From the IMG/VR virus record IMGVR_UViG_3300028800_000057: a DNA stretch of 26,812 bases; one strand, 5' to 3'. A program made the translations under genes and the position numbers. Shown piece by piece: positions 2,578 through 22,378 of this stretch. Within the stretch, counting starts at the first letter, position 1; every line of letters begins with the position of its first letter. This DNA comes from a virus. Lineage: Duplodnaviria > Heunggongvirae > Uroviricota > Caudoviricetes. The notes under the pieces were generated by a model. That model ran no database searches. It saw only the letters and a program-made list of their open reading frames with translations, and was not told the DNA's origin.

Positions 2578-2583
2578 GGTGTA
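2578..2583 (+). promoter_or_regulatory. GGTGTA upstream element (CCGGTGTA), 10 nt before the ATG at 2594.
   Basis: One of at least ten gene-proximal GGTGTA sites found in sense orientation. Confidence 0.4.
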
Positions 2584-2593
2584 ACGATAGGCC

Positions 2594-2968
2594 ATGCCTG
2601 AAAAAGATCCCTGGGAGGCTTACGGATTCACAGCCGGGGACGAGGATGGGGCCTGGATAGTCCCAGGAGCAGAGATCATTCCTCTCCCAGACAGTAAGTG
2701 TCCAGATCACGTTGCAGACTGGACTATCCCTAGGCAAAAAGACCCGACCCCCTACGACATGCCAGTGTTTGTAATCGATCGGATCATTACCTTCAAGAAC
2801 GGTCGGCGGAGAGTGTTCATCTACATGTCTGGTGCGCCTTCCATCAGGGCTGACCGAGACCTTGAAGACATCAAGGACAAGTGGCGGTTATCACCTGGAC
2901 CCGAGCCAGAACCAGAGATTCAAGAGCCCGTGATCCTCTCTCGATACGAACGCAAGTTCGTAATCTAG
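2594..2968 (+). CDS. Hypothetical protein of 124 aa with a C-terminal SRYERKFVI tail.
   Basis: Track ORF with a GGTGTA element upstream. The C-terminal RYER motif is shared with six other ORFs. Its stop TAG shares bases with the convergent gene's stop (CTAG at 2965-2968). Confidence 0.6.
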   Translation: MPEKDPWEAYGFTAGDEDGAWIVPGAEIIPLPDSKCPDHVADWTIPRQKDPTPYDMPVFVIDRIITFKNGRRRVFIYMSGAPSIRADRDLEDIKDKWRLSPGPEPEPEIQEPVILSRYERKFVI

Positions 2969-3840
2969 ATTCCCCGTATGATTCTCTCGTACCGACTAAG
3001 TGGCTCGGGTGGCTTCTCGCCTTGAACCCAGTGTCTGAGAAATAACCTCAGGGGCATCCCAGCACTAGCCCCACGCCAGTGTTTGATGCGAACAAAAGGT
3101 CCTTGAATCAGGACATTGTTCTCAGTCTCAATGACTTGAGCAAATAAATCCTTGGAGTTGGATCTAACCCAGACACCAGCCCTCAACCAGCTGGGTACAT
3201 CCGCCATTGTGGTTACTGGTTCAACGGGGACAGGTGGCGAGAGTAACTCTTGAGGTACTTGTAGTCCAGCAGCTATCAAGTTACTCATCTGATTGACATC
3301 ATCTATGGCAGTATGTGGGTCATTAAGGCGCAAATACCTTAATCGTTCAAGGTTCGCTAGCCCAGTACTAATAGCATCACCAAATACTGAGTTGTCGAGA
3401 GGTCGGTGCATCTCAGCTGCATAGGGTGGGTCTGTGAAGACATGTGGAAGCTCAGGTATGAGCATAGACCTCCTAGCGGTAGCCGTATAATCCAACCTAG
3501 TTCTTAATGGGACTGCAAATGCTTGACCCAACCGCTCTCTCCGGATCGGAGTGCGGATAAAGTCTTCGATTAACTGTTGGATGTTTCTCGGAGGTCCTGG
3601 TTCATAATCAGGCTCGCGTGGTACGACTTGGTATCTATTAATCTCTCTCGCTAGTTGTTCGTCATAGGGGCGTTCCCGTCCTTCATAGAAAAGAACCCCA
3701 ATAGTGATTGACCCCCTGCTACTAGTAAGGTCCACCTGTTGAACGAACTCATCCCGGCGCAAGCGGTAGGCGTGGTCACGAGCTTGAACTCGAGCATCAA
3801 CCGTTGCATCATATCTGAGGGTCCAGTGAGCTCCAGGCAT
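2965..3840 (-). CDS. Hypothetical protein of 291 aa with a C-terminal SRYERIIRGI tail.
   Basis: Long ORF with no recognisable domain. It is the last gene of a co-directional minus-strand cluster running 4870 to 2965. Confidence 0.6.
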   Translation of the reverse strand: MPGAHWTLRYDATVDARVQARDHAYRLRRDEFVQQVDLTSSRGSITIGVLFYEGRERPYDEQLAREINRYQVVPREPDYEPGPPRNIQQLIEDFIRTPIRRERLGQAFAVPLRTRLDYTATARRSMLIPELPHVFTDPPYAAEMHRPLDNSVFGDAISTGLANLERLRYLRLNDPHTAIDDVNQMSNLIAAGLQVPQELLSPPVPVEPVTTMADVPSWLRAGVWVRSNSKDLFAQVIETENNVLIQGPFVRIKHWRGASAGMPLRLFLRHWVQGEKPPEPLSRYERIIRGI

Positions 3841-3844
3841 GACT

Positions 3845-4048
3845 TCAACCTAGGACCGTAATCTTGAAACAAACTAAGTGCCAAAAGGTATCCCTTGTAC
3901 CTTCAGCTGAAGAGAACGGAAGTACGAAACCCCTATCGTGTTCGAGAAAAGATCCTTCACAGTGAAAGCACTTCTCGGTGACAGGGACCGGTACTTGCTC
4001 AGTACCCTCACATATAGGGGCACCCCAAGAGGCACCAAACCACTTCAT
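3845..4048 (-). CDS. Small Cys-rich hypothetical protein of 67 aa.
   Basis: Its ATG overlaps the stop of the upstream gene (ATGA at 4045-4048). CxxC-type cysteines: CEG...CFHCEG. Confidence 0.4.
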   Translation of the reverse strand: MKWFGASWGAPICEGTEQVPVPVTEKCFHCEGSFLEHDRGFVLPFSSAEGTRDTFWHLVCFKITVLG

Positions 4049-4524
4049 ACAGAGCCTTCCTTCATGAATCGTGGGCGGTACTTGCCATCAGGCCACTTCA
4101 CAATCTCAGACCACTCCTGTAGGGTTCTGACAAATACGTCACCAGCTTTGCTTGAGTAGACCACGGCGGGCTCCCCCTTAGGTCCTTGGAGCAAGAGTGC
4201 CTTGCCGTATACCAAGTAGAGTGTCCCTTTGAAGTGGAGGTACGGACCTGAATTGGGATTGCGGGCATCCTTGTAGTCCCCGCGCCAGATGCATTGAAGC
4301 AAACCCTCGGCCTCCTCGACTTGCTCTAGGGTTGCCTTCATCATCGGATTCTGAGCTGGATACTGCTCAAGGAATTTACCTAGAAGAGGTGGATCAGCAG
4401 AACATACTTTCTTAGCCCTATTCTCAGCGTCCTGCAGGTCTCCAACAGAGATATCTCCAAGAGGCCTGCATAAGGCGTAACAAGCAAGGGCTGCGTAAGG
4501 GTTCGATATGCAAGGAGTTGCCAT
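4045..4524 (-). CDS. Hypothetical protein of 159 aa.
   Basis: Track ORF. A minus-strand GGTGTA (TACACC at 4534-4539) lies 9 nt upstream of its ATG. Confidence 0.55.
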   Translation of the reverse strand: MATPCISNPYAALACYALCRPLGDISVGDLQDAENRAKKVCSADPPLLGKFLEQYPAQNPMMKATLEQVEEAEGLLQCIWRGDYKDARNPNSGPYLHFKGTLYLVYGKALLLQGPKGEPAVVYSSKAGDVFVRTLQEWSEIVKWPDGKYRPRFMKEGSV

Positions 4525-4533
4525 GCAACCCTA

Positions 4534-4539
4534 TACACC
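4534..4539 (-). promoter_or_regulatory. GGTGTA upstream element for the gene starting at 4524.
   Basis: Reads TGGTGTAtagggttgcATG on the minus strand. Confidence 0.4.
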
Positions 4540-4543
4540 AGGT

Positions 4544-4870
4544 CTAGGCGTTTCTACCACGTTTTCGTTGGTCCCTGGACAAAACAGCTCTGTATCGTCG
4601 ATTGGGATCTTGCTTGGCGAGGAAGGCTACCATCTTCTGAACTCGCTCGTCGGCGAGCAGTGATTCCACGGTGTTGTACTTGCGTTCAAGCTCCTTGTTC
4701 GAGAACAAGGAGTGGATCATTCGGTGGCAATCCGAACAGATCAGCTGCTTAGTCTTACCCCCACGACACTTAGGAACTAGATGGTGGTCGCTCTTGTGGA
4801 TCGCTGGGCGCGTGCACAGAGGACATATCTCGTAGTTCTGATCAAGACTTACTTCTACCGCATTAGACAT
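4544..4870 (-). CDS. HNH endonuclease, free-standing.
   Basis: CPLC...HHLVP..GG...LIC..CHRMIH matches the HNH zinc-finger nuclease signature. Confidence 0.75.
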   Translation of the reverse strand: MSNAVEVSLDQNYEICPLCTRPAIHKSDHHLVPKCRGGKTKQLICSDCHRMIHSLFSNKELERKYNTVESLLADERVQKMVAFLAKQDPNRRYRAVLSRDQRKRGRNA

Positions 4871-4878
4871 AAAAATAA

Positions 4879-4939
4879 CGGCTCTGGAGGAACTGCACCC
4901 AAGAGGGGGGGTACGGGTGCAGTCACGCGTCCAGAGCCG
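4879..4939. repeat. Nested perfect hairpin: outer stem 10 bp CGGCTCTGGA/TCCAGAGCCG, inner stem 8 bp CTGCACCC/GGGTGCAG.
   Basis: Read directly from the sequence. It sits in the 353-nt noncoding island between the HNH gene start and the NADAR gene start. Confidence 0.6.
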
Positions 4940-5118
4940 TCCGGTCGAGGTTGATGGTATCGAACCACCATAGAATATGGTCCTATAGCCGACTCCAAAG
5001 TATCATTCGGCTAAACCCCGATAGTGACAAGGAGCATTCCCCGTCACACCAAGAAAGGTACACCAATTAAGTTAGGACTTCAAGTAGTATTTTGATAAAC
5101 AACGATCCCCAAAGAATC

Positions 5119-5150
5119 CATGAGGTGGTTTGAGGTTCAACCACCTCATG
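5119..5150. repeat. Perfect 12-bp hairpin CATGAGGTGGTT-n8-AACCACCTCATG.
   Basis: Read directly. It lies about 40 nt downstream, on the minus strand, of a leftward-facing GGTGTA at 5189-5194. Confidence 0.6.
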
Positions 5151-5205
5151 TGTAGGGTAAACGGGTCCCACGACCCACGATAGGACTTTACACCACCGAT
5201 TCTCC

Positions 5206-5211
5206 GGTGTA
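5206..5211 (+). promoter_or_regulatory. GGTGTA upstream element (CCGGTGTA), 12 nt before the ATG at 5224. It is paired with an inverted copy (TACACC at 5189-5194) facing left.
   Basis: Divergent pair TACACCaccgattctccGGTGTA. Confidence 0.4.
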
Positions 5212-5223
5212 TCCCAAGTCGAG

Positions 5224-5754
5224 ATGGATCAGATCTTATTTTATTCACCAAAAGAGATCCCGTATGGTTGCTTCTCGAACTTTTCGAGACACTCAGTACT
5301 GTACAAGGGCCGGAATTGGAGTACTTCAGAGGCTGCCTTCCAGGCGATGAAGTTCCACCCTCACCGGTTGGATTTGGTGGAAGCAATCCTAAGAGCCCCC
5401 AAGCCAATGGAGGCGGCCGCACTTGGGAGGGACCGTAGCTACCCGATTCGAGATGACTGGGATAGCCCAGTGTCCAATTGGGGTGGGTTGGAGGGGTCTC
5501 TTGTTGATGATGGGCGGGGACCGGCGAAGGCCATTAAACTAGTCAAGGACTTGGTCATGTTCGAAGTGGTTCTAGCCAAGTTCACCCAGCACTCGGATAT
5601 CCGAAGCATCCTTCTGGGCACTGGGACCTTGGCTCTTGTTGAGAACGCCATCCACGACCCGTACTGGGGGATTGGTTGCTCAGGGGTCGGTGTCAACCGG
5701 TTGGGTAAGGTTTTGATGCTAGCTCGACAGTCGCTCAAGGACCAAAAACTCTAG
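5224..5754 (+). CDS. NADAR domain protein (YbiA/DUF1768-like), a putative ADP-ribose-processing N-glycosidase.
   Basis: FYS..PYGCFSNFS...YKGRNWSTSEAAFQAMKF, GRDRSYPIRDDW and DPYWGIGCSGVGVNRLGKVLMLAR match conserved NADAR blocks. Confidence 0.8.
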   Translation: MDQILFYSPKEIPYGCFSNFSRHSVLYKGRNWSTSEAAFQAMKFHPHRLDLVEAILRAPKPMEAAALGRDRSYPIRDDWDSPVSNWGGLEGSLVDDGRGPAKAIKLVKDLVMFEVVLAKFTQHSDIRSILLGTGTLALVENAIHDPYWGIGCSGVGVNRLGKVLMLARQSLKDQKL

Positions 5755-6164
5755 ATCACCCAAGGGCGCTCGTATCGACTGGGCATCCCTTCTGACACTT
5801 CAGAACCGCCGGCTTGGAACGCCTCTCTGATGATAAGGAAGAGGTATTGCTCCAAAGTTCCAGTCCAATTTGCTGGAAACTTGCCAGTAGCACGTAGTTC
5901 TCCGATCATCAGGGTTTCCACTTTGCACTCGACAAGATGGACTTTTGGTCGAAATTGGCACCATTGCCTGGGAAGCTTCAAGTCTAACTTCTTGTTATCC
6001 TTCACCATTGCAAGGGCTAGTGCAAAGATCCCTGGTGTTTTATCGGCGGACACAATCACAGGATCGCCTCGATGGAAAGCGGTCAAAAGAGCCCTAACAT
6101 CGTTTTGAGTCACCAGCTCGGGGCTACTGGGATTCTTTGATGAATTGAAGAACGGAGCTGCCAC
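5751..6164 (-). CDS. Hypothetical protein of 137 aa with a C-terminal SRYERPWVI tail. It has a GTG start.
   Basis: Track ORF. Its stop shares CTAG with the NADAR gene's stop. AGTGTA lies 12-17 nt upstream of its start. Confidence 0.5.
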   Translation of the reverse strand: MAAPFFNSSKNPSSPELVTQNDVRALLTAFHRGDPVIVSADKTPGIFALALAMVKDNKKLDLKLPRQWCQFRPKVHLVECKVETLMIGELRATGKFPANWTGTLEQYLFLIIREAFQAGGSEVSEGMPSRYERPWVI

Positions 6165-6205
6165 GTCAGTAGATTACACTTTTCTGAACTACTTTCCAGA
6201 GCTTT

Positions 6206-6211
6206 GGTGTA
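6206..6211 (+). promoter_or_regulatory. GGTGTA upstream element, 22 nt before the ATG at 6234.
   Basis: Reads ctttGGTGTAgtatctctctaaatcgcatgctATG. Confidence 0.35.
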
Positions 6212-6233
6212 GTATCTCTCTAAATCGCATGCT

Positions 6234-6647
6234 ATGTCGAGAATCCCGAACGGAGGTCCCATGTCATTGGAGTTGAGTAAAGAGATGTTGATGGTCCAGG
6301 GGTATCTTGGAGATGCCAAGTTACTTGTAGACCAACAACTAGGCAAGATTGCTCACGAGAGAATCGGTGTGGTTATTGTTGAGATCGCCAAGATGCTTCA
6401 ACAGGAGCGCCATCACCTACACAAGAAAGCACCTTCTGTAACTACTCCGTCTTCGAGCCCCAAGGGTGATCAGGTGATGGAGAGCGCCCGCAACAACCCC
6501 CAAGTACCTTTGATGGTATCGGCCTCTAATGACGAATCAACACCTCGGAATACCTCTCGAGTTCGAAAGCCGAAGGAGGTAGATCCTCGGGTTCAAAAAC
6601 CCAAGAAGGTTGAAGTTAAGTCAGTGAAGAAGTCACGACGGCGCTAG
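6234..6647 (+). CDS. Hypothetical protein of 137 aa with a Lys/Arg-rich C-terminus.
   Basis: Track ORF with a GGTGTA element upstream and a hairpin plus T-rich terminator downstream. Confidence 0.5.
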   Translation: MSRIPNGGPMSLELSKEMLMVQGYLGDAKLLVDQQLGKIAHERIGVVIVEIAKMLQQERHHLHKKAPSVTTPSSSPKGDQVMESARNNPQVPLMVSASNDESTPRNTSRVRKPKEVDPRVQKPKKVEVKSVKKSRRR

Positions 6648-6666
6648 ATCACAAGCTGACTCCTCA

Positions 6667-6705
6667 CGAGCGTAGTTTCAAAAAGCTACGCTCGTTCTGC
6701 TTTTG
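6667..6705 (+). terminator. Intrinsic-terminator-like hairpin CGAGCGTAG-n10-CTACGCTCG followed by TTCTGCTTTTG.
   Basis: 9-bp perfect stem plus a T-rich tract 20 nt after the stop at 6647. It is flanked by a 9-bp inverted repeat GATCACAAG/CTTGTGATC at 6648 and 6728. Confidence 0.5.
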
Positions 6706-7370: not shown

Positions 7371-7577
7371 GTGCTTGCATTCCTTGCACATGTAGTGCCC
7401 ATCTGACCAGCAAGTACCCGTTCCTGGTCCATAGTCAAACATCTGGCATGGGTTCATTCGGTCACGCACCCCCACCTCACCCACGACGTTGTTACGAATC
7501 TGCTCTTGACGTTCCAAGTACTCGCGTTCCACCTCAAGATAGCGGATTATTCTCTCATATCGAGTTGGGACTGGCAT
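7332..7577 (-). CDS. Small zinc-ribbon-like hypothetical protein beginning MPVPTRYERIIRYLE.
   Basis: Internal ATG at 7577 of the 7332..7712 track ORF. Using it avoids overlap with the phosphatase gene. The N-terminal TRYERIIR is identical in 7 of 8 residues to the C-terminal SRYERIIR of the 2965..3840 gene. CWSDGHYMCKEC are Cys ligands. Confidence 0.35.
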   Translation of the reverse strand: MPVPTRYERIIRYLEVEREYLERQEQIRNNVVGEVGVRDRMNPCQMFDYGPGTGTCWSDGHYMCKECKHLSPDRPYRFEED

Positions 7578-7602
7578 AAAGAACTTATCTAGGCCACTGG
7601 GT

Positions 7603-9185: not shown

Positions 9186-9203
9186 GCCTAGCTAGTTAGC
9201 TCG

Positions 9204-10481: not shown

Positions 10482-12328
10482 TAGGCGGTTGTGGATACAC
10501 CGGCCTTCTGCAGTTCGATCTCGAAGTCGTCAATTACCGCAGATACAAAGGCTGAATCAGGTTCATCAGCCCCATTGGACTTCACTTGAACCGGCGGAGC
10601 TTTCTTTGGTTCTACCTTCTTGGGCTCAGGAGCTTTCTTTGGTTCTACCTTCTTGGGCTCAGGAGCTTTCTTTGGTTCTACCTTCTTGGGCTCAGGATCC
10701 TTCGTAGACTCTTCTTGATCTAGAAGAGCGGCTAACTCGTCCGCGCTAATGTCCGTGCCTGTAGAGGGTGTGGGAGCAGGTGCTGACGGTTCTGAACTGA
10801 GGACCTCGTCCAACAAGTCAATGTCTAGCTCATCGTCCTTCTTAGGTTCAGCTGATGCTGTTACGGGTTCAATATCGGACGTGTCGACCAACCCACACTT
10901 GGGGCAGTTCGCATGGGTGGCGTATGAGTCTGCGGTTTCAACCTGACTACCACAGAAGCAGCACTTGAACTTATCTGCCGATAGCTCCTGTGACAGCTTG
11001 ATCCGCTCTACTTGAGCCTCTGTAATCCCACTTAGCCCACCATGACCCTTACTGCAAGTAGCACCACTTGGACTATTCAATTGGGGTTCTAGGCATTCCG
11101 GGCAGTATAAACCGTTGGGCTCTAATGTCTTCCTGGTAACGGTGAGCCTATCAATACTGATCTTGATGAAGCCCATCAAATCAATGAGGGCATCACGCAT
11201 CCCTTGGGGGTCTACTGGAGATTCGTCAATCCCCTGTACAAGAGAGGTGCACAGGTTTACCACTTCAGTGGCATCGGTTGGTATAACCAGACCTTGTTGT
11301 GGTACGGCAGTATAGTGGGAGATGAGGTTCATTGTCGTGAGATACGACGTCAGTTCCGTATGCAAGCCCACGAGTACTGAAGTAGCTGACTCGTCGAGTA
11401 CAATGACCCTCAAGGCTTCCTTCAGTAGACGGCGCGCAGTAGTTATTCTCTCTACTGGGGTCTCTGGAGGATCCCTATCACTGTCGTCGTCATCAACCTT
11501 GGATGGTTCGAGAGCATGGGCGGGCTTCTCTTCAGCCTTGGGCGGCTCCGGTGCTACTTCAACGGTGACTGGTTTGGCAGGCTTGGGTGTTGGGATCGGG
11601 GCGCCGGTACTGGCGGTGACAGAGGTACCCCCCTTGGCTGCTTCTCGGATGGTGTCAGACAGCGTCGTCTTGGTGCGCGGGGTCTTGAGGTAGATGACCA
11701 CGTCGTCTGCAGAGGGAGCTCGACTTTCACGCTTGGCAGCTTCCTCAGCGAATTTGATGGCATCAATAACCATAGTGGTAGCCAGTGACTTCGAGTTAAC
11801 CCTGTCCTTGTAGTCCTCGGGGACAATCTTGCTACTGAAGATGATGCGATAGGTGGTGGCAAGCTTGAAAGTGACTCCCAACCGATCAGCCAACTTTTTG
11901 AGGGCCTCCCCTTTCTTGCCCTTTTTGCCCTGTTCACTGGCTTCTAGGATCTGCTCCAACCTTTCAAGGGAGGTAGCCATCCTTCTTGGGTCAAGATGCC
12001 GGCGCTTAGCATTGGCGCTCATCAAGTACTCGAGTTCTTCTTCTTTTGATTCAAAGTTCTCGTGAACTCGAACAGCAATCACTTCCTCTTTGATCTGCGC
12101 GCTGGTCAGGCCGCCTTGTTCGAGAGTCCAACAGAAGCCAGAGTACCTGATGTGGCCCGACAGTATGGTTCCGTCGTCAAGGATGATGAGGGGCTCCTGA
12201 AGGCCTCTCTTCTGGATATCCTCTCTAATCTCTTCGTAACTTGCCTCGTCGGTAGGAAGACCGAAGATCTTTACGTTGTCTGGGTGTAGTCTCAGGGAAC
12301 CAATCTTACGAAATTCAATCTTGTCCAT
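10481..12328 (-). CDS. ParB/Srx-like N-terminal domain protein of 615 aa with two zinc ribbons and a C-terminal KKVEPKKAPEP tandem repeat.
   Basis: GLQEPLIILDDGTILSGHIRY is the ParB box. Two zinc ribbons: CPECLEP...CSKGH and CCFCGSQ...CPKCG. GGTGTA lies 15 nt upstream. Confidence 0.8.
   Translation of the reverse strand: MDKIEFRKIGSLRLHPDNVKIFGLPTDEASYEEIREDIQKRGLQEPLIILDDGTILSGHIRYSGFCWTLEQGGLTSAQIKEEVIAVRVHENFESKEEELEYLMSANAKRRHLDPRRMATSLERLEQILEASEQGKKGKKGEALKKLADRLGVTFKLATTYRIIFSSKIVPEDYKDRVNSKSLATTMVIDAIKFAEEAAKRESRAPSADDVVIYLKTPRTKTTLSDTIREAAKGGTSVTASTGAPIPTPKPAKPVTVEVAPEPPKAEEKPAHALEPSKVDDDDSDRDPPETPVERITTARRLLKEALRVIVLDESATSVLVGLHTELTSYLTTMNLISHYTAVPQQGLVIPTDATEVVNLCTSLVQGIDESPVDPQGMRDALIDLMGFIKISIDRLTVTRKTLEPNGLYCPECLEPQLNSPSGATCSKGHGGLSGITEAQVERIKLSQELSADKFKCCFCGSQVETADSYATHANCPKCGLVDTSDIEPVTASAEPKKDDELDIDLLDEVLSSEPSAPAPTPSTGTDISADELAALLDQEESTKDPEPKKVEPKKAPEPKKVEPKKAPEPKKVEPKKAPPVQVKSNGADEPDSAFVSAVIDDFEIELQKAGVSTTA
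10597..10695. repeat. Perfect 33-nt tandem repeat in three copies, encoding KKVEPKKAPEP three times.
   Basis: GAGCTTTCTTTGGTTCTACCTTCTTGGGCTCAG repeated three times on the plus strand. It generates spurious antisense ORFs such as 10204..10707. Confidence 0.9.
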
Positions 12329-12343: not shown

Positions 12344-12349
12344 TACACC
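12344..12349 (-). promoter_or_regulatory. GGTGTA upstream element (TCGGTGTA) for the ParB-like gene.
   Basis: Reads cttcGGTGTAaagggttgcagcagtATG on the minus strand. Confidence 0.4.
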
Positions 12350-13445: not shown

Positions 13446-13451
13446 TACACC
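13446..13451 (-). promoter_or_regulatory. GGTGTA upstream element (TCGGTGTA) for the thymidine kinase gene.
   Basis: Reads cattcGGTGTAtggaagccccATG on the minus strand. Confidence 0.4.
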
Positions 13452-14864: not shown

Positions 14865-14870
14865 GTACAC
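14865..14870 (-). promoter_or_regulatory. GGTGTA upstream element (TCGGTGTA).
   Basis: Reads ccgttcGGTGTActcatcaagGTG on the minus strand. Confidence 0.35.
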
Positions 14871-14904
14871 CGAACGGTTATCCTCTTGTTGTTTCTGTTC
14901 GTAG

Positions 14905-16731: not shown

Positions 16732-16784
16732 CGCTTCCGAATTGGTGTTGTACCTTCGAAGGGCCAATGGGGGATGACCAGGCT

Positions 16785-16824
16785 TTGCCTTTTAAATACC
16801 TCACCATGGGGACTTAAAAGGCAA
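16785..16824. terminator. Gene-end hairpin TTGCCTTTTAA-n18-TTAAAAGGCAA between convergent genes. It has no U tract.
   Basis: 11-bp perfect stem read directly. It is part of the motif cluster shared with 21324-21407. Confidence 0.45.
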
Positions 16825-16946
16825 CATCACGAATTGTTGGGCAACCCAAATCTAAAGGCCGAGCTGCCTCTACCAGCTTACATTTCCACGCAATAAAGGT
16901 GGAAACCTTGGATGCCCGCCTCTTGCAGTTTTCTAACGAACCCTTG

Positions 16947-17372
16947 TTAGTTGACAGCTAGGTATACGCTGACTGTCATCTTGTTCAGGATGTTCTCGCT
17001 ATTCTCAACGAGAAACGCCCAACGTCCCGAAGGGATCTGATCCGTATTCGTAAAGGCAGCTGTACGCGGTTGTGTCCATGAGGCCAACTCTCGACAGGTT
17101 CCACCCTTAACTGTGCAAGAGGTCACATCTTCTGCATTTACCACTCGTACACGGAAGCCCTTGTCAGTGTGCTTCAAGCCCGCAACCTTCGCCTGAAAAG
17201 TGGCTCCGGAAGTGGAAAATTCTTCTGCTTGGTATGAACCAGCAGCAATCACCCACTCAGCGTCCACGAGGACTTTGGTGTTCCCTTGAGCACGAATGTC
17301 TCTTGGAGCGAATGCGAGGACTGCGAGTGTAAAGGCTGACGCTACTAGTGTAAACTGTCGTGACTTTGTCAT
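16947..17372 (-). CDS. Secreted hypothetical protein with an N-terminal signal peptide.
   Basis: Internal ATG at 17372 gives MTKSRQFTLVASAFTLAVLAFAPRDIRAQ, read as a signal peptide with an AxA site. The track ORF starts 13 codons earlier. Confidence 0.55.
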   Translation of the reverse strand: MTKSRQFTLVASAFTLAVLAFAPRDIRAQGNTKVLVDAEWVIAAGSYQAEEFSTSGATFQAKVAGLKHTDKGFRVRVVNAEDVTSCTVKGGTCRELASWTQPRTAAFTNTDQIPSGRWAFLVENSENILNKMTVSVYLAVN

Positions 17373-17527
17373 GGTACAAAGGCCCTTCCCCGCAGTACTA
17401 CGGCCAATCAACTTAGAACTTGAGGACTGCTAATCCAAGTATGAACGTTGCTTTTCATTCTTGGTAGGCTTTTGTCACACATCTAGCCCGTTGACTCACG
17501 TCACGAGGACAGGCAGCATTACCAATT

Positions 17528-17830
17528 ATGCCTGTCTACCTCATCACATACGATGTCAACACCCTAGATAAGTCCGAGGCTGAAAAGACCAAAGCTGACC
17601 AAAGGCGGAACAAGATCCGAGACAACATTACTGAAGGGTACAAGGAACACCAACGGCTATCAGAATCCACCTACGCGGTTGTCACGACGGATAGTCCCGC
17701 CAGAGTGAGTAGACGGCTCTTTGGGCTCATTGAGAAACAGGATGAGTACCACGTCGCCCTTTTACAGACCCCTGTCGAGAGCCACGCTTCCGAAGGGACG
17801 AAGGCTTGGCTACGGGAACATATTCCATAA
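17528..17830 (+). CDS. Small protein with a Cas2-like N-terminus. The call is uncertain.
   Basis: MPVYLITYDVNT matches the Cas2 beta1 signature hhhhYDv carrying the catalytic Asp. The RR-rich helix that follows fits a Cas2 layout. It overlaps a convergent small ORF by about 100 nt. Confidence 0.35.
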   Translation: MPVYLITYDVNTLDKSEAEKTKADQRRNKIRDNITEGYKEHQRLSESTYAVVTTDSPARVSRRLFGLIEKQDEYHVALLQTPVESHASEGTKAWLREHIP

Positions 17831-17942
17831 CTATGTAGTCGTCTTCAGTAAGTCCTTTGGCGGCAAGCAACTCATGAAAGTTTGGCAAACTCTTGAGTTC
17901 GTCCCATGTACCCCTGGTGATGTAGTACTTTTTCTTCTTCAT
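17727..17942 (-). CDS. Hypothetical small protein of 71 aa beginning MKKKKYYITRGTWDE.
   Basis: Internal ATG of the 17727..18053 track ORF. It lies just downstream of the transposase gene on the same strand. GGTGTA (17978-17983) lies 35 nt upstream. Confidence 0.35.
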   Translation of the reverse strand: MKKKKYYITRGTWDELKSLPNFHELLAAKGLTEDDYIVMEYVPVAKPSSLRKRGSRQGSVKGRRGTHPVSQ

Positions 17943-17944
17943 AC

Positions 17945-19300
17945 CGTTGCTCGTCAATAAATGGTTTAGGGTACTTCTACACCGACGCGAGACAGAATCA
18001 CTCCTGTGTCTTAGATGCCAGAGCCTATGCTGCTTGCCAGAACACAGGATCAATGCCGAGTTCGAACATCTCGTGAACGAGGACAGCCAAGTTGTAGGCG
18101 AGGGTTTTGCAGAGGATCTCGTTCACTTGGGCATCATACATCTTCGATCGAACAGCACTGCCTAGCTTCCTCTTGACCGCACTGAAAGTGCACTCAACAT
18201 TCGACCTCTGATGGTAGTGCTCTAGAAACTCATCCTTCTTGTAGTTGAAGAGATGCCAAAGCTTCCTCCATTGCTTCGATCCATCACTCGTCGAGTTGAT
18301 CTTGAATGGGATGTACGGAACTGCACCTACCTCCGCAATCACATCCAGGTTACCATAGCTCAAGTAGGCTTTGTCGGCAGACACGTCGACTACATCGAAG
18401 TGTTTTGCCGTTGTCTGTACTAATCCAGGAAGCTCAGGACAGTCGGCAACATCACCTTGAGTAACTTCTACGGCCGTCACGATATTTGTGATCGTCCCAA
18501 CCGCGTAATGAGCCTTGAGGTACTTGGCCTTCTTCATCTCCCGTCCGTACTTGTGATCGAACCATCTGTTGTACACGGAAGTTGAGAATCCTGTAGAGTC
18601 TACTGCGAAGGTTGTCTCAACTGCCCTTAGAGGCTGAGTACTCTCCTCGATCAAAGTCTTGAGCAGCGGGGCTAACTCAGGTTGCTCCATGTGAAGGAAC
18701 AAGGTGTTGTAATGAGGGCTGCAGGTGATATGGCCCTTCTCTCGGCATTCTCGAATGTCAGTCGAGGCTCTCCGCCCTGACCAAGTCGAATAGGTCTTCA
18801 TGACGTTACCGAAGACGATATCGCCTAAAGGCAACCGAGGACGGCCTCTACCCTGTTGTGGTGGTTGGGTGATCCCATCGCACAAGCCTTTGAGAAGGGC
18901 CTCTACCACCTCCTTCTCTTGAGTCTGGGCCGCATTGTAGGCTGGCCAATCCTGAGTGTAAGTTACTCGAACCGTATCCGTGGTGAGGATCGTTCCATCT
19001 GATCTAAGGACTCGATGCCTCGTGAACTCTACGGCATACTGGTGCTTACATGTGCACCCTCTGGTTTCGAAGTCCGGACAGGTGCAACTGTGAGCTTTGG
19101 GATCTACAACGTAGGAGCCACCGTGAGACTGGCTGGGGACAACCCAAAGCTTGCCATTCTTCTTGATCCGCCTCGTGCTGGCTATCTGTAAGCCTTTCTC
19201 TTCTCGTGGGCTTAGATTCGATTCTACGTTACTCATACCTAGTATTACGCATGAGAGCGTCGGATCTCAACAAGATTGACGTAATATGTGGGTTTAGGTA
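17945..19300 (-). mobile_element. IS4/IS5-like element. Its ends were not located.
   Basis: Only a 7-nt inverted match was found (CCGACGC at 17981-17987 against GCGTCGG at 19256-19262). The boundaries are a guess. Confidence 0.3.
18025..19236 (-). CDS. DDE transposase of the IS4/IS5 superfamily (DDE_Tnp_1-like) with an N-terminal SWIM-type zinc finger.
   Basis: N-terminal CTCPDF...CKHQYAV is a SWIM CxCx(n)CxH. C-terminal ADKAYLSYGNLD and HYHQRSNVECTFSAVKRKLG match the YxxRxxxExxFxxxKxxxG signature of IS4/IS5 transposases. Confidence 0.8.
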   Translation of the reverse strand: MSNVESNLSPREEKGLQIASTRRIKKNGKLWVVPSQSHGGSYVVDPKAHSCTCPDFETRGCTCKHQYAVEFTRHRVLRSDGTILTTDTVRVTYTQDWPAYNAAQTQEKEVVEALLKGLCDGITQPPQQGRGRPRLPLGDIVFGNVMKTYSTWSGRRASTDIRECREKGHITCSPHYNTLFLHMEQPELAPLLKTLIEESTQPLRAVETTFAVDSTGFSTSVYNRWFDHKYGREMKKAKYLKAHYAVGTITNIVTAVEVTQGDVADCPELPGLVQTTAKHFDVVDVSADKAYLSYGNLDVIAEVGAVPYIPFKINSTSDGSKQWRKLWHLFNYKKDEFLEHYHQRSNVECTFSAVKRKLGSAVRSKMYDAQVNEILCKTLAYNLAVLVHEMFELGIDPVFWQAA

Positions 19301-19935
19301 TCAGCACTCAAGTCACAACGGAAAGTCCAAAGGCTGGTCAAGGACTCCGTTAGGTGAGGTGTCTTCTTGTTCCGCTTCTGTCTCCGGGATCACTTCGACG
19401 TTACCGCATATCTGAACCCAGTTGATCGATCCGTTGAAGTTCAAGTAGTTAGCGGCGACCTGAGATCCAACTACCAAGAACTGGGGTTGGAATAAACCTG
19501 GTGCTAAGCCTGGCTCTACAGCCCAGAACTCTTGTCCAACCTCTTCGACTTGAAGGAACGCTGTCCGGTCTCCATGGACAGGGCTTCTCAGGTTGTACGA
19601 GATCCGAATCTTTAGTTGGTCACCCTGGGGGTTGGCCGATCCAGTTGGGAGGCTTTTCCCAAGCCTCTTCCCGCCGGGGTTGCCAAGTCAAGAGGCCGCT
19701 GGTCTCGATTGACTTGGCTAGCGAATTCAGACTATTCTGGAGGACAGTATGGGCCAGCCCGTCAAGGGGTTTGGGGCGTTAATTAGACAAACACACTCAG
19801 CACCGCTGATTTTCCTGGTAATTGCGCCTATGACACCACCATAACCACATGGTGGGACACCAAAAAATGTAAGAGTCCCATTTTCATTCACTGACCTTTC
19901 TGAGATATTCATTCGAAAGGCAGGCATTGTAAGTC

Positions 19936-20547
19936 ATGAGCGGAAAACTCTTTCGTACATGTGTGTTGATCACAACTCTGGGCGTTGCATGTCAATGCGA
20001 AAGCAAACAGGACAAAGACGCACAAGTCCAGCAAGCTGTAACCCAAGCTCTGGAACAAGAGAGGGCTTCTCAAGCTCAGGCTCGTGAACAAGAAAAGGTC
20101 TCTCAAGCACAAGTCCAGCAGGCCGTATCACAAGCATTGGAACAAGAGAAGGCCTCTCAAGTTCAGGCATTGGAACAAGAGAAAGCCTCTCAAACACAAG
20201 CTCTGGAACGAGAAAAGAAAGCGTTGAGAGATACACCCGACAGCTTTCTAATCACGAGCAATCTTGAGTATTACAACAAGGGTATCATCAACGATTACCG
20301 GCAACTCATCAAGGTGAGTGTTCTGAATCGCTCTAAGTTTCCAGTTGGTGGGCTCTCAGGGGACGTCGAGTGGTATGACGATAACGGAGGTAAATTCGGC
20401 TCTACTACGTTTGCTCTCGGTGGATCGATACCGGCAGGTGACACGAAGAATTTTTCTACGGAAGACGGATCAATGACGAGCACTACAATACAAGGGGGCG
20501 CCAAAAAGGCGGTAGTCAAGTTCACTCATGTCGAGATCATCGAGTGA
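19936..20547 (+). CDS. Repeat-containing protein with a signal/lipoprotein-like N-terminus and QALEQEKASQ tandem repeats.
   Basis: MSGKLFRTCVLITTLGVAC is hydrophobic and ends in Cys. There are five to six degenerate 30-nt repeats at about 20028-20222. Confidence 0.6.
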   Translation: MSGKLFRTCVLITTLGVACQCESKQDKDAQVQQAVTQALEQERASQAQAREQEKVSQAQVQQAVSQALEQEKASQVQALEQEKASQTQALEREKKALRDTPDSFLITSNLEYYNKGIINDYRQLIKVSVLNRSKFPVGGLSGDVEWYDDNGGKFGSTTFALGGSIPAGDTKNFSTEDGSMTSTTIQGGAKKAVVKFTHVEIIE

Positions 20548-20570
20548 ACTAGCCCACTATCTTTTGAGGT

Positions 20571-20801
20571 TTAACTCTCGTAGATCTTATGAGTTAGGAA
20601 ATCCTGGTATAAAACTTCAGCTCTGATAGCTGCACCGTCTTGAAATTGTAAGTCGAGGAAGACTCGTTCGCTAGATTCAACCGGTTTCGAGTCGATGTAT
20701 ATCCCGTCCTCACCCCTAGTCAGGTCTATTGACCGAACTTCTTCGTAACCAATGATTCGTGGACTGAGATGGTGTTCAGGTAAATGATTGATTTCTGACA
20801 T
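20571..20801 (-). CDS. Hypothetical protein of 76 aa.
   Basis: Track ORF with no motif. Confidence 0.4.
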   Translation of the reverse strand: MSEINHLPEHHLSPRIIGYEEVRSIDLTRGEDGIYIDSKPVESSERVFLDLQFQDGAAIRAEVLYQDFLTHKIYES

Positions 20802-20873
20802 GGCTCTAAGTTGAGTTCACAAGAACTTTATCCATACCTAGACGTACTGACCAAAACCGAGTAGGGATGCAGG

Positions 20874-21107
20874 ATGTCGGTTGAATACCTAGATCCAAAT
20901 ACATGTCAGTGGGTTCATCTCAATAACGCAACTGTTGAGCTTTCTGAGTCAAATCGCTATTTAGTAACTCTCACAGTGCAACCATGGGTTCACCTGACCA
21001 CCCTCGACGGCATTCCGCTCCGCATTGATGGGCATGAGAGTTTTCGTGCGTGGGGAACGAGACGTATCGGTGTAACCTTAGTGTTGGATGTACTTGTAAA
21101 GCTCTAG
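20874..21107 (+). CDS. Hypothetical protein of 77 aa, an alternative to the overlapping minus-strand ORF 20971..21198.
   Basis: Two mutually exclusive track ORFs. The plus-strand one looks more protein-like. Confidence 0.3.
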   Translation: MSVEYLDPNTCQWVHLNNATVELSESNRYLVTLTVQPWVHLTTLDGIPLRIDGHESFRAWGTRRIGVTLVLDVLVKL

Positions 21108-21411
21108 CTCCACTCTCTACAAATGCAGCGAGACCTTCGGGAGTCACGAGGACTCCTGACAGACCTTCAGTTGCTCTGTAAGCAATTTGACTGGCCAAGT
21201 CTGGTACGGCAACTTCAGTCTTGTTGATGAACGCAGGGGTGGTAGATATGAGTAGTGGGTGGGTGTTAGATCACCATTCTAAATGGTTGGTTCGTCTAGC
21301 CGGTTAATTATTAGGCAAGTGGGGAATTTGTTGGGCAACTGCCATTTAAAAGGCAAAGCCGGATGACCACTGGCGCCAACCGCTTCCTACGAAGCTTGAA
21401 AGGGCGTTAAA

Positions 21412-21729
21412 GTGGAAAATATTACGATTGGTCGGTACGACCGTGACCCAGAAGCACAAGGGCTAATCAAGCCTGAGAGTGGTCGATGGCAGCTCGTTAT
21501 TGACAAGGATGGTTACCCACACCTATTCGTCGAGTCCAACATCGAGAACAAGGACGGGACGACGAGCAAGGGACTGTTCTGCCTTGAGGATATGCTTCCT
21601 GAAGGTATGAGCGTCAAGGACATCATGAATAGCACCTTCGGTGGAGAACTGACCGATGATGAGGAGCTCAAAGCCCAAAAGGAGTATGAGGCGAGCCGAG
21701 AAGCCACTGGGATCCCATGTCCTCGGTAA
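21412..21729 (+). CDS. Hypothetical protein of 105 aa with a GTG start.
   Basis: Track ORF, preceded by motif cluster B (21324-21407). Confidence 0.45.
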   Translation: MENITIGRYDRDPEAQGLIKPESGRWQLVIDKDGYPHLFVESNIENKDGTTSKGLFCLEDMLPEGMSVKDIMNSTFGGELTDDEELKAQKEYEASREATGIPCPR

Positions 21730-21801
21730 GCAACAAATCCTCTTATAGGTCGTCACTGGTGTAACTAGTTTGACGTTTCGCCATATCTGCGTCCTCTGCA
21801 C

Positions 21802-21836
21802 GAAGCCCCTCACTTCCCTCCGACTTGAGGGGCTTC
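21802..21836. terminator. Gene-end hairpin GAAGCCCCTCA-n13-TGAGGGGCTTC between convergent genes. It has no U tract.
   Basis: 11-bp perfect stem read directly. A plus-strand GGTGTA at 21758-21763 lies 38 nt upstream. Confidence 0.5.
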
Positions 21837-21840
21837 GACT

Positions 21841-22110
21841 TTAACCAGTGACCTCGGTGAGACACTGAATGAAGAATTTGGCATTCTCAATCACGGCCGC
21901 ACCAGCTTCTTCAGGGGTTCTGAATCCGTCACTGATGGTGACCATAGAACCCTTACCCGCGTTCTTCACAATGTGACCTACCCAGTCACCCCAGGGTTGC
22001 TGACTAATCAGGACTCGGGCGTGCTCCGTGAATCCTTCATAGCGATCAAACACCTCTCGGTTTTTCTTCAAGGTAAGCGTGACCGTTCCAACTTTGATGG
22101 TCTGTTTCAT
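21841..22110 (-). CDS. Hypothetical protein of 89 aa.
   Basis: Track ORF with an ATG start. Confidence 0.5.
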   Translation of the reverse strand: MKQTIKVGTVTLTLKKNREVFDRYEGFTEHARVLISQQPWGDWVGHIVKNAGKGSMVTISDGFRTPEEAGAAVIENAKFFIQCLTEVTG

Positions 22111-22138
22111 GATTATGCTTAGAGCAGATATTTAGGTT

Positions 22139-22363
22139 TTATGCGTCTGGCAGTAGCTCACCGAATTCGGCCAGTAGTTCTTTTCTTTTGGCCTCAGCTT
22201 CGGCTTCAGTGGCGTATGCTTTGGATTCCGGTATGAACTCCAGGAAGCAACCCGTCCTAAGTGAGTATCCGTGGTGCTCCGGGACGTACTTACACTGGAG
22301 CTCCTTCTTCTCAATGTTCCCATCGTACTCAACTAGAAACCATCTTTTCACATAGTCCGACAT
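22139..22363 (-). CDS. Hypothetical protein of 74 aa.
   Basis: Track ORF. A minus-strand GGTGTA (22373-22378) lies 9 nt upstream. Confidence 0.5.
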   Translation of the reverse strand: MSDYVKRWFLVEYDGNIEKKELQCKYVPEHHGYSLRTGCFLEFIPESKAYATEAEAEAKRKELLAEFGELLPDA

Positions 22364-22378
22364 GGTGTATTCTACACC
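22364..22378. promoter_or_regulatory. Perfect palindrome GGTGTAttcTACACC filling the 18-nt gap between divergent start codons at 22363 (-) and 22382 (+).
   Basis: Read directly. It places one GGTGTA 9-12 nt upstream of each divergent ATG. Confidence 0.55.

Follow-up and report, generated by a model that had tools for sequence, protein, structure and literature searches.

Phage T4 and phiEco32, a 77-kb podovirus of E. coli, both have promoters with a single conserved block. In the late promoters of T4 this is TATAAATA, a nearly invariant AT-rich element of 8 bp in the -10 region, without a -35 element, which defines a temporal class and is read by the phage sigma-like protein gp55; gp33 and the sliding clamp are also required, and the mRNAs have ordinary leaders with a Shine-Dalgarno (SD) sequence. 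[quoted passage not shown] At the middle/late promoters of phiEco32, host RNA polymerase carrying the diverged phage sigma factor gp36 recognises one strongly conserved element, tAATGTAtA, which has no -35 partner and is followed by the transcription start site (TSS) 6-8 bp downstream (PMC8948821). In bacterial leaderless genes a -10 'TA-like' signal is found about 12 bp before the start codon (PMC3160421, PMC12340547), while the non-virion RNA polymerases of jumbo phages use the promoters TATG in phiKZ and AACA-N6-TA/G in AR9, the 5′ UTRs of the latter being 26-491 nt long (PMC5312081).

The stretch of DNA analysed here (the window, 26,812 nt, IMG/VR record IMGVR_UViG_3300028800_000057) comes from an uncultured huge phage that is rich in tRNAs and encodes sigma factors; its relatives are found on contigs of 407-442 kb, and the genomes that carry the motif described below belong to an uncultured bacteriophage family, with about 400 kb each. 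The window contains 20 copies of GGTGTA, whereas 10.26 ± 3.04 are expected and none of 100 shuffles reaches that number; a sequence-only reading had counted about 14 and taken them for roughly random, but the actual count is twice the shuffle expectation. Nine copies lie in sense orientation 9-15 nt before pipeline-called starts, where about 0.1 would be expected. Some others are clear chance copies, among them six within coding sequence and one within a tRNA. The individual sites are as follows.

2578..2583, plus strand: GGTGTA, 10 nt before ATG 2594 (124-aa gene)
4534..4539, minus strand: GGTGTA, 9 nt before ATG 4524 (DUF1653 gene)
5059..5064, minus strand: GGTGTA, in front of a tRNA-like non-coding element that is conserved
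5189..5194, minus strand: GGTGTA, gene-less in this lineage, facing a 12-bp hairpin at 5119-5150
5206..5211, plus strand: GGTGTA, 12 nt before ATG 5224 (NADAR gene)
6206..6211, plus strand: GGTGTA, 22 nt before ATG 6234, a weak case
10496..10501, minus strand: GGTGTA, 14 nt before ATG 10481 (AAA ATPase)
12344..12349, minus strand: GGTGTA, 15 nt before ATG 12328 (ParB-like gene)
13446..13451, minus strand: GGTGTA, 10 nt before ATG 13435 (thymidine kinase)
14866..14871, minus strand: GGTGTA, 9 nt before GTG 14856 (121-aa gene)
17978..17983, minus strand: GGTGTA, 35 nt before ATG 17942, a weak case
21758..21763, plus strand: orphan GGTGTA between convergent genes, facing a 12-bp hairpin at 21801-21837
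22364..22378, both strands: crossing pair GGTGTA-N3-TACACC, with hexamers at 22364 (plus) and 22373 (minus)

At orthologous sites in the relatives the hexamer is unchanged while the flanks diverge. The 2578 site is found again in L015, L016, L017 and L020 with its spacing class unchanged, the 4534 site, which sits in a 19-nt gap behind a co-directional gene, in L015-L017, L019 and L020, and the 14866 site, whose gene is divergent from the gene at 14905, in L015, L017 and L020. Upstream of the ParB-like gene, none of the 12 orthologous loci shows any change in the hexamer, while the flanks have diverged and the spacing varies from 9 to 15 nt. The 5206 site, kept in L016, L018, L019 and L020, forms the right half of a back-to-back pair TACACC-N11-GGTGTA (5189-5211), and the orthologue of its left half precedes a gene of about 500 aa in L016, L017 and L018. 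The crossing pair fills the 18-nt gap between the divergent ATGs 22363 (minus) and 22382 (plus), so that each gene owns an oriented copy, at 9 and 12 nt; it is kept in L015, L016 and L017, with a variable central triplet (TTC, GAG, CAT or GGG).

All ten pairs of hexamer and start codon proposed by the sequence-only reading exist where they had been placed, but those at 6234 and 17942 are weak and the site before 10481 had been missed. The gene after the 6206 site has its pipeline start at 6261, preceded by GGAGG, and no hexamer is found at the orthologues of this site in the relatives compared. At 35 nt, the 17978 site does not belong to the 8-16 nt class, and the segment around it, which L015 lacks, is a lineage-specific insertion. 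The 10496 site is located within the end of the ParB-like coding sequence and is kept in L015 but not in L016, and is hence doubtful or lineage-specific. The two orphan sites, 5189 and 21758, do face the hairpins ascribed to them, with 12-bp stems; the latter site is kept in L015 only and mutated in L016, and is probably non-functional or lineage-specific.

The enrichment of the hexamer upstream of starts, which had been suggested from the window, is borne out on a larger scale. In a 43.6-kb composite with 66 pipeline-called genes, a start is found at a distance of 8-15 nt for 14 of the 36 copies, as compared to 0.22 expected (p=3e-22), and five of these 14 fall in flanks outside the window. 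GGTGTA is also the top de novo 6-mer of the extended contig, being present in 14 of 66 upstream regions against 0.95 expected (p=6e-13), and it ranks first among upstream 6-mers in eight diverged relatives as well (L015, L016, L017, L018, L019, L020, L032 and L033; ParB-like identity down to 31%, GC 50-58%). Independently of gene calls, a long-ORF ATG follows 87 of 194 copies, whereas 59 permuted hexamers average 3.2%; the associated ATG is the first in-frame one in 77 of the 87 cases, and the spacing peaks at 9-10 nt (25 cases at 9 nt and 24 at 10 nt). Across the approximately 265 kb surveyed, which cover accessory-gene regions, 99 of 215 exact copies are start-associated (long-ORF ATG at 8-15 nt), and at most 6.5% of the copies are so for each of the 18 single-mismatch variants tested. 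The motif precedes about 22% of the genes in the sampled regions. Copies away from starts occur at about the chance rate (107 versus roughly 114 expected), and the bare hexamer is under no counter-selection inside genes, which implies that it is insufficient alone or that spurious initiation is tolerated.

The motif is a single block, (Y)GGTGTA, in which every base of the hexamer is invariant, even across phages with proteins only 31-50% identical and with differing GC content. The preceding base is a pyrimidine in about 90% of the sites and a G in 1 of 86; the CGGTGTA form accounts for about half of the sites, so the YC prefix proposed earlier is correct only in part. Nothing else is conserved between -45 and +20 in an alignment of the motif sites, not even in the -35 region, so these starts have no other nearby sequence that could act as a promoter. 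At the modal spacing the TA of the motif occupies positions -12/-11, counted from the ATG, and the conserved -7 T of sigma-70-type -10 elements is absent from the motif sites. The hexamer is found at 5 of 73 operon-internal starts versus 63 of 225 transcription-unit heads or other starts (p=9e-5), and an SD sequence of five or more bases at 1 of 69 motif genes versus 40 of 237 other genes; both contrasts pool syntenic relatives, and p-values from them overstate independence. A symmetric operator is unlikely, since the sites stand singly and always point towards their gene.

The element preceded by the copy at 5059 is the following.

4871..5058, minus strand: structured non-coding RNA candidate with a cloverleaf-like core and a GGTTCGA T-loop

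The core is followed by a stem (4878-4940) and a U-tract that ends just before ATG 4870. The candidate has a fold z-score of -5.4, is 70-80% identical in L015, L016 and L017, and its consensus structure contains five compensatory pairs; Rfam gives only a weak match to tRNA-Sec (18 bits), and ARAGORN made no tRNA call for it in the window. A conserved CTTGAA lies at 5079-5084, 14 nt further upstream of the hexamer, and both TGGTGTA and CTTGAA are invariant in the four aligned genomes, while downstream of the hexamer the sequence contains indels of 1 and 5 nt and lacks an ORF. Translation is thus irrelevant to the conservation of the hexamer at this site.

The start of the thymidine kinase gene can likewise be assigned with the help of the motif. 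The internal start at 13435 (179 aa), favoured already by the sequence-only reading, is supported as the true one, as seven relatives have the hexamer at a distance of exactly 10 nt from this ATG and the source pipelines call the protein as 179 aa; the Pfam domain begins at residue 34 of the long form. A stop codon breaks the upstream extension in L015 and L023, which also speaks against the start at 13504.

The reading that we consider probable is that a phage factor recognises (Y)GGTGTA as a -10-like promoter made of one element only, from which mRNAs arise that are leaderless or have leaders of 1-5 nt. The earlier suggestion of a promoter core with a very short or no 5′ UTR, as opposed to an SD sequence, finds support in the single block, the bias towards unit heads, the exclusion of SD sequences and the non-coding site. 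We infer that the hexamer works as a promoter at the DNA level, where the TSS lies, that translation is leaderless and which factor is the reader, the TSS being placed purely by geometry and analogy. The hexamer would occupy the -10 region as the only sequence-specific element, and with a spacing of 9-10 nt transcription would begin at the A of the ATG or a few bases away from it; the drift from 9 to 15 nt at the ParB-like gene indicates that many transcripts would not be strictly leaderless. The leaderless pathway would serve the messages from motif promoters, for which no SD sequence would be needed, whereas downstream genes of tight operons would rely on translational coupling or on an SD of their own.

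Of the described systems, phiEco32 shares with this arrangement a single conserved block in the -10 region, the lack of a -35 element and a TGTA core, and aligning the two cores would put the TSS, 9-11 nt after the A, on the ATG. The phage is, however, unrelated to this clade, its block is AATGTATA whereas GGTGTA is G-rich on the upstream side, and its description includes no leaderless transcripts (PMC8948821), which are predicted here. Bacterial leaderless genes similarly have a TA at around -12/-11, no SD and a promoter abutting the ORF, but their signal is TAnnnT, read by the housekeeping sigma and with a conserved -7 T, while here that base is not conserved, an invariant GGTG precedes the TA, and the spacing of up to 15 nt predicts some leaders of a few nucleotides. 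The T4 late element is comparable as a single near-invariant -10-region element without a -35, and differs in its AT-rich 8 bp and in leaders with SD; a gp55-like gene did not turn up in the sampled regions. The phiKZ and AR9 promoters likewise consist of very short sequences on or close to the TSS without a -35, in giant phages, but these phages use multisubunit polymerases of their own and no sigma factors (PMC5312081), whereas here sigma genes are present, and polymerase genes were not seen in the sampled 265 kb.

Two conventional promoter types were also found in the window.

19234..19274, minus strand: second promoter class, CTTGTTGAG-N16-CGTAATA-N6-ATG, before a DDE transposase
23992..24031, plus strand: host-type promoter TTGACG-N18-TACCTT-N7-ATG, abutting the start of gene 24029

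The box of the former class recurs at L004 3496 (minus) and L016 919, and a sigma-70 scan of the 19234 locus yields TTGAGA-N18-AATACT. For the latter type, TTGAC clusters at -37/-39 from ATGs, with nine cases against about 0.17 expected per position. As both classes abut start codons, start-adjacent promoters appear to be a general design in these genomes. The reader of GGTGTA is most likely phage-encoded, given that the hexamer is invariant despite the divergence in protein sequence and GC content, and it would be a conserved factor that partners the host RNA polymerase. The best candidate is sigma2, a clade-specific diverged sigma (L004 4631-5263) with only eight homologues, all of this clade, including those on 442-kb and 435-kb contigs. 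Sigma2 has a recognisable region 4, which in sigma factors normally reads the -35 element, and this sits oddly with sites that have none; gp36 of phiEco32, in contrast, lacks region 4, which explains the absence of a -35 from its promoters.

Other explanations account for parts of the pattern. It is rather unlikely that GGUGUA works at the mRNA level, as a signal for SD-independent initiation of translation 8-15 nt before the AUG, through which a phage RNA-binding factor or a phage-modified ribosome favours phage messages transcribed from promoters further upstream with no conserved sequence. The short fixed distance to the AUG, the near-exclusivity with SD sequences and the tolerance of 8-15 nt, similar to that of ribosome-binding sites, would all fit, as would the 10496 site, placed inside an upstream coding sequence ahead of a translationally coupled gene; the lack of counter-selection elsewhere would be natural if the signal worked only beside an AUG and was otherwise inert. 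Operon-internal starts would nevertheless need such a signal equally, yet rarely have it, the 10496 site is missing in L016, and an invariant hexamer also precedes the conserved non-coding RNA gene. No other promoter-like conservation is seen upstream of the motif genes, and the divergent pair 18 nt apart would require both promoters to lie inside the partner's coding sequence. Like an SD sequence, GGTGTA is a short purine/G-rich word at a fixed short distance before starts, but it is invariant rather than degenerate, an all-or-none behaviour unlike that of base-pairing signals; moreover, going by the standard anti-SD sequence, only GGUG would pair, with CACC of the 16S 3′ tail, and too far from the AUG, the word is scarce at operon-internal starts and it also precedes a non-coding gene. 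Sigma2 itself uses a canonical GGAGGAG SD.

An asymmetric regulator site, be it an operator, a 'stoperator'-type roadblock or an activator site beside weak or non-conserved promoters, seems improbable. The sites are intergenic and strictly gene-oriented, as are the oriented stoperators of mycobacteriophage L5, their invariance suits recognition by a protein and two inverted pairs exist (5189/5206 and 22364/22373); each half of these pairs is, however, accounted for by its own gene, the hexamers are mostly alone, non-palindromic and short for a typical repressor site, a roadblock has no need of a sharp 9-10-nt spacing to the ATG, and about 22% of the genes would be left without a detectable promoter. 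We regard as very doubtful that an endoribonuclease of phage or host trims transcripts, at GGUGUA or immediately after it, to leaderless or short-leader mRNAs: the position just before AUGs without SD would agree with this and the copy before the tRNA-like gene could serve maturation, but the hexamer is scarce at operon-internal junctions, where trimming would be most useful, no nuclease candidate was identified, and transcription of the divergent first genes would go unexplained with no other promoter visible. Lastly, it is hardly credible that chance, base composition, coding bias or gene-caller preference produced the pattern; although the copies in a tRNA and in window coding sequence are clearly accidental, the positional p-value, the permuted-hexamer and single-mismatch controls, which are free of gene calls, the recurrence in flanks beyond the window and in the eight diverged relatives, and the invariance of orthologous hexamers amid diverging flanks all speak against this.

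If (Y)GGTGTA is the promoter proposed here, the regulation of these phages may follow a cascade from host-type promoters through sigma2 to the GGTGTA genes, as suggested by the sigma2 gene having no GGTGTA upstream but a conventional box and an SD leader. A phage gene switch of this kind is already known, and GGTGTA would be a new example of it.

The hexamer GGTGTA occurs 20 times on the two strands of the window, rather than the roughly 14 times, near the random expectation, at which the sequence-only reading had put it; dinucleotide-preserving shuffles contain 10.3 ± 3.0 copies, and 0 of 100 reach 20. All ten hexamer/start pairs listed there are present, with 10, 12, 22, 12, 9, 15, 10, 9, 35 and 9 nt between hexamer and start codon (the distance d), and an eleventh, overlooked pair lies at 10496-10501 (−), 14 nt before the ATG (10481) of an AAA-ATPase gene. 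A de novo comparison of upstream words returned GGTGTA as the most enriched 6-mer in the 40 nt before genes (14 regions vs 0.95 expected, p = 6e-13). The copies of the window that were retrieved match it at 99.4-100% identity and served solely for extension to a 43.6-kb composite, the statistics of which rest only on the 66 gene calls supplied with the source records. Of its 36 hexamers 21 are intergenic, and 14 are found at 8-15 nt from a start where 0.22 would be expected (p = 3e-22), so the positional enrichment proposed from visual inspection is borne out; five of the start-associated composite sites fall in flanks outside the window.

The ten pairs had been taken as one class, and eight of them are supported as such, whereas the hexamers at 6206 and 17978 lack conservation support. 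The former (d = 22) is absent at the orthologues, and its gene is a long ORF from 6234 (+) that the source pipelines start at 6261, with GGAGG and a 4-nt spacer before that codon. The latter (d = 35) is located in a ~4.7-kb segment (window ~16732-21411) with a DDE_Tnp_1+SWIM transposase gene and several small ORFs, which is a lineage-specific insertion, as it is missing from a relative's locus (L015), where a 608-aa and a 105-aa gene adjoin. The site at 10496, the single operon-internal one of the window, that is, close behind a co-directional gene, is not conserved in another relative (L016). Separately, an opposite-strand pair of hexamers at 24327-24358, inside the CDS 24223-24576, forms an imperfect 14-nt inverted repeat (GGTGTACCATTACG / CGTGAGGGTACACC) that may be due to chance.

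Alignment of the sites yields a single block of six invariant bases, preceded by a pyrimidine in ~90% of cases and by a G in one of 86. No other conserved position, including a −35 partner, is found between −45 and +20 in either the 14 sites or 86 unique sites. A canonical sigma-70 −35 element (TTGACA-like, 16-18 bp upstream of the −10) is absent, with no information content from −45 to −2, and so is a −10 of the TAnnnT type with a conserved T at −7, the position four nucleotides after the TA being A 23, C 21, G 25 and T 17 times in the 86 unique sites. The canonical bipartite sigma-70 promoter is rejected on both grounds, and so is the extended −10 (TGnTATAAT), since in GGTGTA the TG directly abuts the TA and TAnnnT is absent. 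Generic sigma-70 and terminator consensus scans remained at chance level.

The hexamer behaves in an all-or-none manner: of 215 exact copies in 265 kb of non-redundant sequence, 99 have an ATG 8-15 nt downstream that opens an ORF of at least 60 aa, the baseline being ~3%; all 18 single-mismatch variants are at most 6.5% start-associated and are thus rejected as functional sites, and 59 permutations of the same composition average 3.2%, the highest being GTGTAG, a one-base shift of the hexamer, at 18.9%. The distances d of 8, 9, 10, 11, 12, 13, 14 and 15 nt are represented by 6, 25, 24, 5, 11, 6, 5 and 5 sites, respectively (n = 87), and in 77 of these no other in-frame ATG intervenes between the upstream stop and the associated ATG. 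Copies away from starts occur at the chance rate (107 vs ~114 expected), so the bare hexamer is not counter-selected within genes, and either it is insufficient alone or spurious starts are harmless.

The gene content of the window is that of a very large phage's accessory region. Exact-protein matches come from soil, rhizosphere and sludge metagenomes, from contigs in the 0.2-1 Mb class, and the relatives' contigs measure 407, 435 and 442 kb, one of them catalogued in IMG/VR as a viral genome. Among GenBank phages, megablast finds no close match to the window, tblastn with the ParB-like protein and with sigma2 (one of two phage sigma factors encoded right of the window) finds no clade member, and these searches yielded no cultured or annotated relative. 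In IMG/VR, single-protein locus searches gave no match and a profile search only the distant 407-kb relative. No tRNA genes are found in the 26.8-kb window and the Rfam gathering scan of it returns no family; 14 tRNA genes are present in the sequence adjoining its left end. To its right lie two sigma-70-family genes, a response regulator and a nucleoside deoxyribosyltransferase.

Features of the window and its left flank
241-2291 (+): IS607-like element, directly upstream of the first putatively GGTGTA-driven gene
241-864 (+): MerR-HTH serine recombinase, overlapping the TnpB/Cas12f-like TNB gene
861-2291 (+): TnpB/Cas12f-like TNB protein of the IS607-like pair
window: DUF1653, HNH-like protein and NADAR genes
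window: 'Swiss-army-knife' HAD and PTP RNA-repair domains
window: papain-like protease, AAA ATPase, ParB-like protein
window: thymidine kinase, DDE transposase, PLD-like protein, end of CCA-adding enzyme
L011 (a contig extending the window) 1748-6477, left of the window: array of 14 tRNA genes with interspersed small ORFs (Arg, Asp, Trp, Gln, Ala x3, Thr x2, Gly x3, Ile, Cys)

In the tRNA array, a pipeline gene call at L011 4470 overlaps the tRNA-Ile, and GGTGTA-N9-GTG at 4509 suggests that the real start of the gene is downstream of this call. The ParB-like gene (window 10481-12328, −) has in-frame length variants of 561, 604 and 615 aa in near-identical contigs of the same population (L009, L010), which map to the low-complexity middle part.

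The comparative set was made up of the neighbourhoods of the ParB-like homologues (24 proteins, 31-98% identity) and of two sigma2 homologues. GGTGTA is the top upstream 6-mer in all eight diverged relatives with gene calls (p from 5e-6 to 3e-13), which range from 50 to 58.5% GC, and at orthologous genes the hexamer is kept while the surrounding sequence has changed. Before the ParB-like gene it is invariant in 12 of 12 loci, with d varying from 9 to 15 nt; before the thymidine kinase gene it stands exactly 10 nt from the same ATG in 7 loci. Together with a stop codon in the upstream extension of the long ORF in two relatives (L015 and L023), this fixed position confirms the internal thymidine kinase start at 13435 that had been favoured from the motif. 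In the divergent pair 22363/22382, GGTGTA-N3-TACACC occupies the 18-nt gap, the triplet being TTC, GAG, CAT or GGG depending on the genome.

Leaderless gene architecture is familiar from Actinobacteria, Deinococcus-Thermus and the Thermus phage phiYS40. At the predominant distances of 9-10 nt (49 of 87 sites) the T of the TA falls at −11/−12 from the ATG. The accepted mark of leaderless genes in bacteria is a TA-like −10 signal that begins with a T ~12 bp before the start codon (PMC3160421), and in Deinococcus an ORF-adjacent −10 element drives leaderless expression (PMC12340547). The genes preceded by GGTGTA, hereafter motif genes, show both a TA-like signal at about −12 and a scarcity of Shine-Dalgarno (SD) sequences (1 of 69). 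The phiEco32 sigma factor gp36 recognizes a single highly conserved element, tAATGTAtA, without a −35 and with the start 6-8 bp downstream (PMC8948821); if the two elements are aligned on the shared TGTA, +1 would be placed 9-11 nt after the A, i.e. on the ATG. GGTGTA would accordingly occupy the slot of a −10 element, with transcription starting at or near the ATG, and sites with d of 12-15 nt would give leaders of a few nucleotides.

Boxes of other types likewise lie close to start codons. TTGAC cluster at −37/−39 from ATGs (9 cases vs ~0.17 expected per position), and a bipartite box precedes the DDE transposase gene:

window 23992-24031 (+): host-type TTGAC (−35)-like box, TTGACG-N18-TACCTT-N7-ATG; orthologues in the relatives L015, L016 and L017
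window 7575-7618 (−): host-type TTGAC (−35)-like box; orthologues in L015, L016 and L017
window 19234-19274 (−): bipartite box CTTGTTGAG-N16-CGTAATA-N6-ATG, before the DDE transposase gene

The last of these is also present upstream of 3496 (−) in L004, a contig extending the window to the right, and at L016 882-921. The fixed position of TTGAC would put transcription starts at or next to the start codons in a third gene class, and since other promoter classes also abut start codons, leaderless or near-leaderless expression looks like a general design here.

Four observations from the comparative sequence data favour a promoter acting at the DNA level: the position at transcription-unit heads, the lack of any other conserved element, a site before non-coding sequence, and a word unlike an SD. 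Among 306 pipeline-called genes, 225 have starts that are divergent or lie more than 15 nt behind a co-directional gene, and 63 of these carry the motif, as against 5 of the 73 with operon-internal starts (Fisher p = 9e-5, which overstates independence because the loci are syntenic). As nothing else is conserved upstream, a mere RNA signal would leave ~22% of genes, including the first genes of divergent units, without a recognizable promoter, and in the 18-nt divergent pair would require both promoters to lie inside the partner's coding region. In addition, the hexamer at 5059-5064 (−), invariant in four genomes, precedes a conserved element:

window 4871-5058 (−): non-coding structured element; orthologues at L015 16585-16774, L016 19035-19227 and L017 16505-16691

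Indels of 1 and 5 nt and the lack of an ORF show the element to be non-coding, so translation is irrelevant at this site. It is 70-80% conserved, with a fold z of −5.4, a cloverleaf-like core with a canonical GGTTCGA T-loop, and a terminator-like stem (4878-4940) followed by a U-tract up to the ATG at 4870; the anticodon-loop sequence varies between relatives. ARAGORN returned nothing for the element and Rfam only a weak tRNA-Sec match (18 bits), and it may represent a tRNA-like or tRNA-derived RNA gene.

The SD core pairs with the CCUCC of the standard 16S 3′ tail at 5-10 nt from the AUG. A GGAGG-type core is missing from GGUGUA, of which only GGUG could pair, with CACC and 11-17 nt away from the AUG; such pairing leaves the invariant UA unexplained. 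Motif genes are not SD-enriched, whereas the non-motif genes are: an SD of five or more bases precedes 1 of 69 and 40 of 237 (17%), respectively, against a random background of ~7%. This enrichment and the GGAGGAG in the sigma2 leader indicate that the host ribosomes evidently use ordinary SDs. An SD ribosome-binding site is rejected on the weak complementarity, the 11-17 nt distance, the operon distribution (5 of 73) and the site before the non-coding element, and the earlier statement that GGTGTA is not a Shine-Dalgarno sequence stands on the same evidence. An RNA-level signal effective only beside an AUG would explain why non-start copies occur at the chance rate, but its rarity at operon-internal starts and its invariance before a non-coding element make it rather unlikely. 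The same low probability is given to GGUGUA being a phage-private, SD-independent translation-initiation signal, an mRNA 'zip code' recognized by a factor that the phage encodes or by a ribosome that it has remodelled, or, more mildly, the promoter of an unrecognized sigma-like protein or polymerase.

Binding of a repressor offers another explanation. The mycobacteriophage L5 stoperator is a ~13-bp asymmetric repressor site that is present in many copies oriented with transcription. Orientation and copy number of GGTGTA are as expected for such a site, but the conserved length is only 6-7 bp, and a symmetric operator is rejected since most sites are single and oriented; an operator function is rated improbable. 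An RNA processing site is more improbable still, and the likelihood of an artefact is negligible.

That GGTGTA has stayed invariant in phages that differ in GC content and in which a neighbouring protein has diverged to 31% identity points to a conserved reader of the proposed promoter, encoded by the phage. The two sigma genes are located 5-10 kb beyond the right end of the window:

L004 63-911 (+): sigma1, 282 aa, RpoH-like
L004 4631-5263 (−): sigma2, ~170-200 aa, FliA/WhiG-like

Sigma1 aligns end to end with RpoH/RpoS models and has five close phage homologues, followed by cellular sigma-32-type proteins at 40-46% identity, the few named ones of which belong to Polyangiaceae or Myxococcales. 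It thus resembles a gene derived recently from the host, a weak hint at the host's identity, and as lineage-restricted and host-like it was set aside as the reader. One GGTGTA site (5059) has a sigma-32-like CTTGAA 14 nt upstream. Sigma2 has eight homologues in 5.8 billion proteins, all from this clade and including the 442-kb and 435-kb contigs, so it is clade-specific and co-distributed with the motif, and is the candidate reader, with the caveat that it has a recognizable region 4, the usual −35 reader, while GGTGTA sites have no −35. Its gene lacks GGTGTA and has instead a conserved TAATAC/TTATAC box and an SD leader with GGAGGAG, which suggests a cascade in which a host-type promoter would drive sigma2 and sigma2 in turn the GGTGTA class. 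The 210-aa call is probably too long, as the homologues have 167-200 aa. Between two assemblies of this phage population (L003 1898-2530 and L004 4631-5263) the sigma2 gene differs, being one ORF in one of them and two ORFs of 70 and 125 aa in the other, from either a strain-level disruption or an assembly error. Alternatively, the reader could be another sigma-like protein or a phage polymerase encoded in the remaining ~350 kb; for the genes retrieved, which cover ~45-60 kb of each ~400-kb genome, the precomputed Pfam hits include no RNAP domain.

With one block in the −10 region and no −35, GGTGTA appears to behave as a single-element promoter of the phage-sigma kind, as for phiEco32 gp36 and T4 gp55, combined with a leaderless architecture. 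The start 6-9 bp downstream of the element in these two systems is compatible with its geometry, although it shares only TGTA with tAATGTAtA and nothing with the T4 element TATAAATA. The promoters of the jumbo-phage nvRNAPs (phiKZ TATG, AR9 AACA-N6-TA/G; PMC5312081) differ in sequence, and sigma genes are present here. In a literature search GGTGTA turned up only within primer sequences and not as a phage promoter.

The observation is solid and useful for annotation of the clade, with a minority chance of something more unusual. A reader acting on RNA rather than DNA would, if true, constitute a new type of translation control, and the 'zip code' would mean that a huge phage steers ribosomes to a quarter of its genes; in the milder version, six all-or-none bases would suffice, and deliberate leaderless mRNAs would be a host-takeover strategy. 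As an all-or-none hexamer across deep divergence, the motif is a clean, testable target. For an uncultured family of ~400-kb phages it serves as a ready-made regulatory map, in which it marks transcription-unit heads, corrects start codons such as that of the thymidine kinase gene and flags non-coding genes, and the suggested use of leaderless or near-leaderless expression as a general design bears on how huge phages capture the transcription and translation machinery of their hosts.
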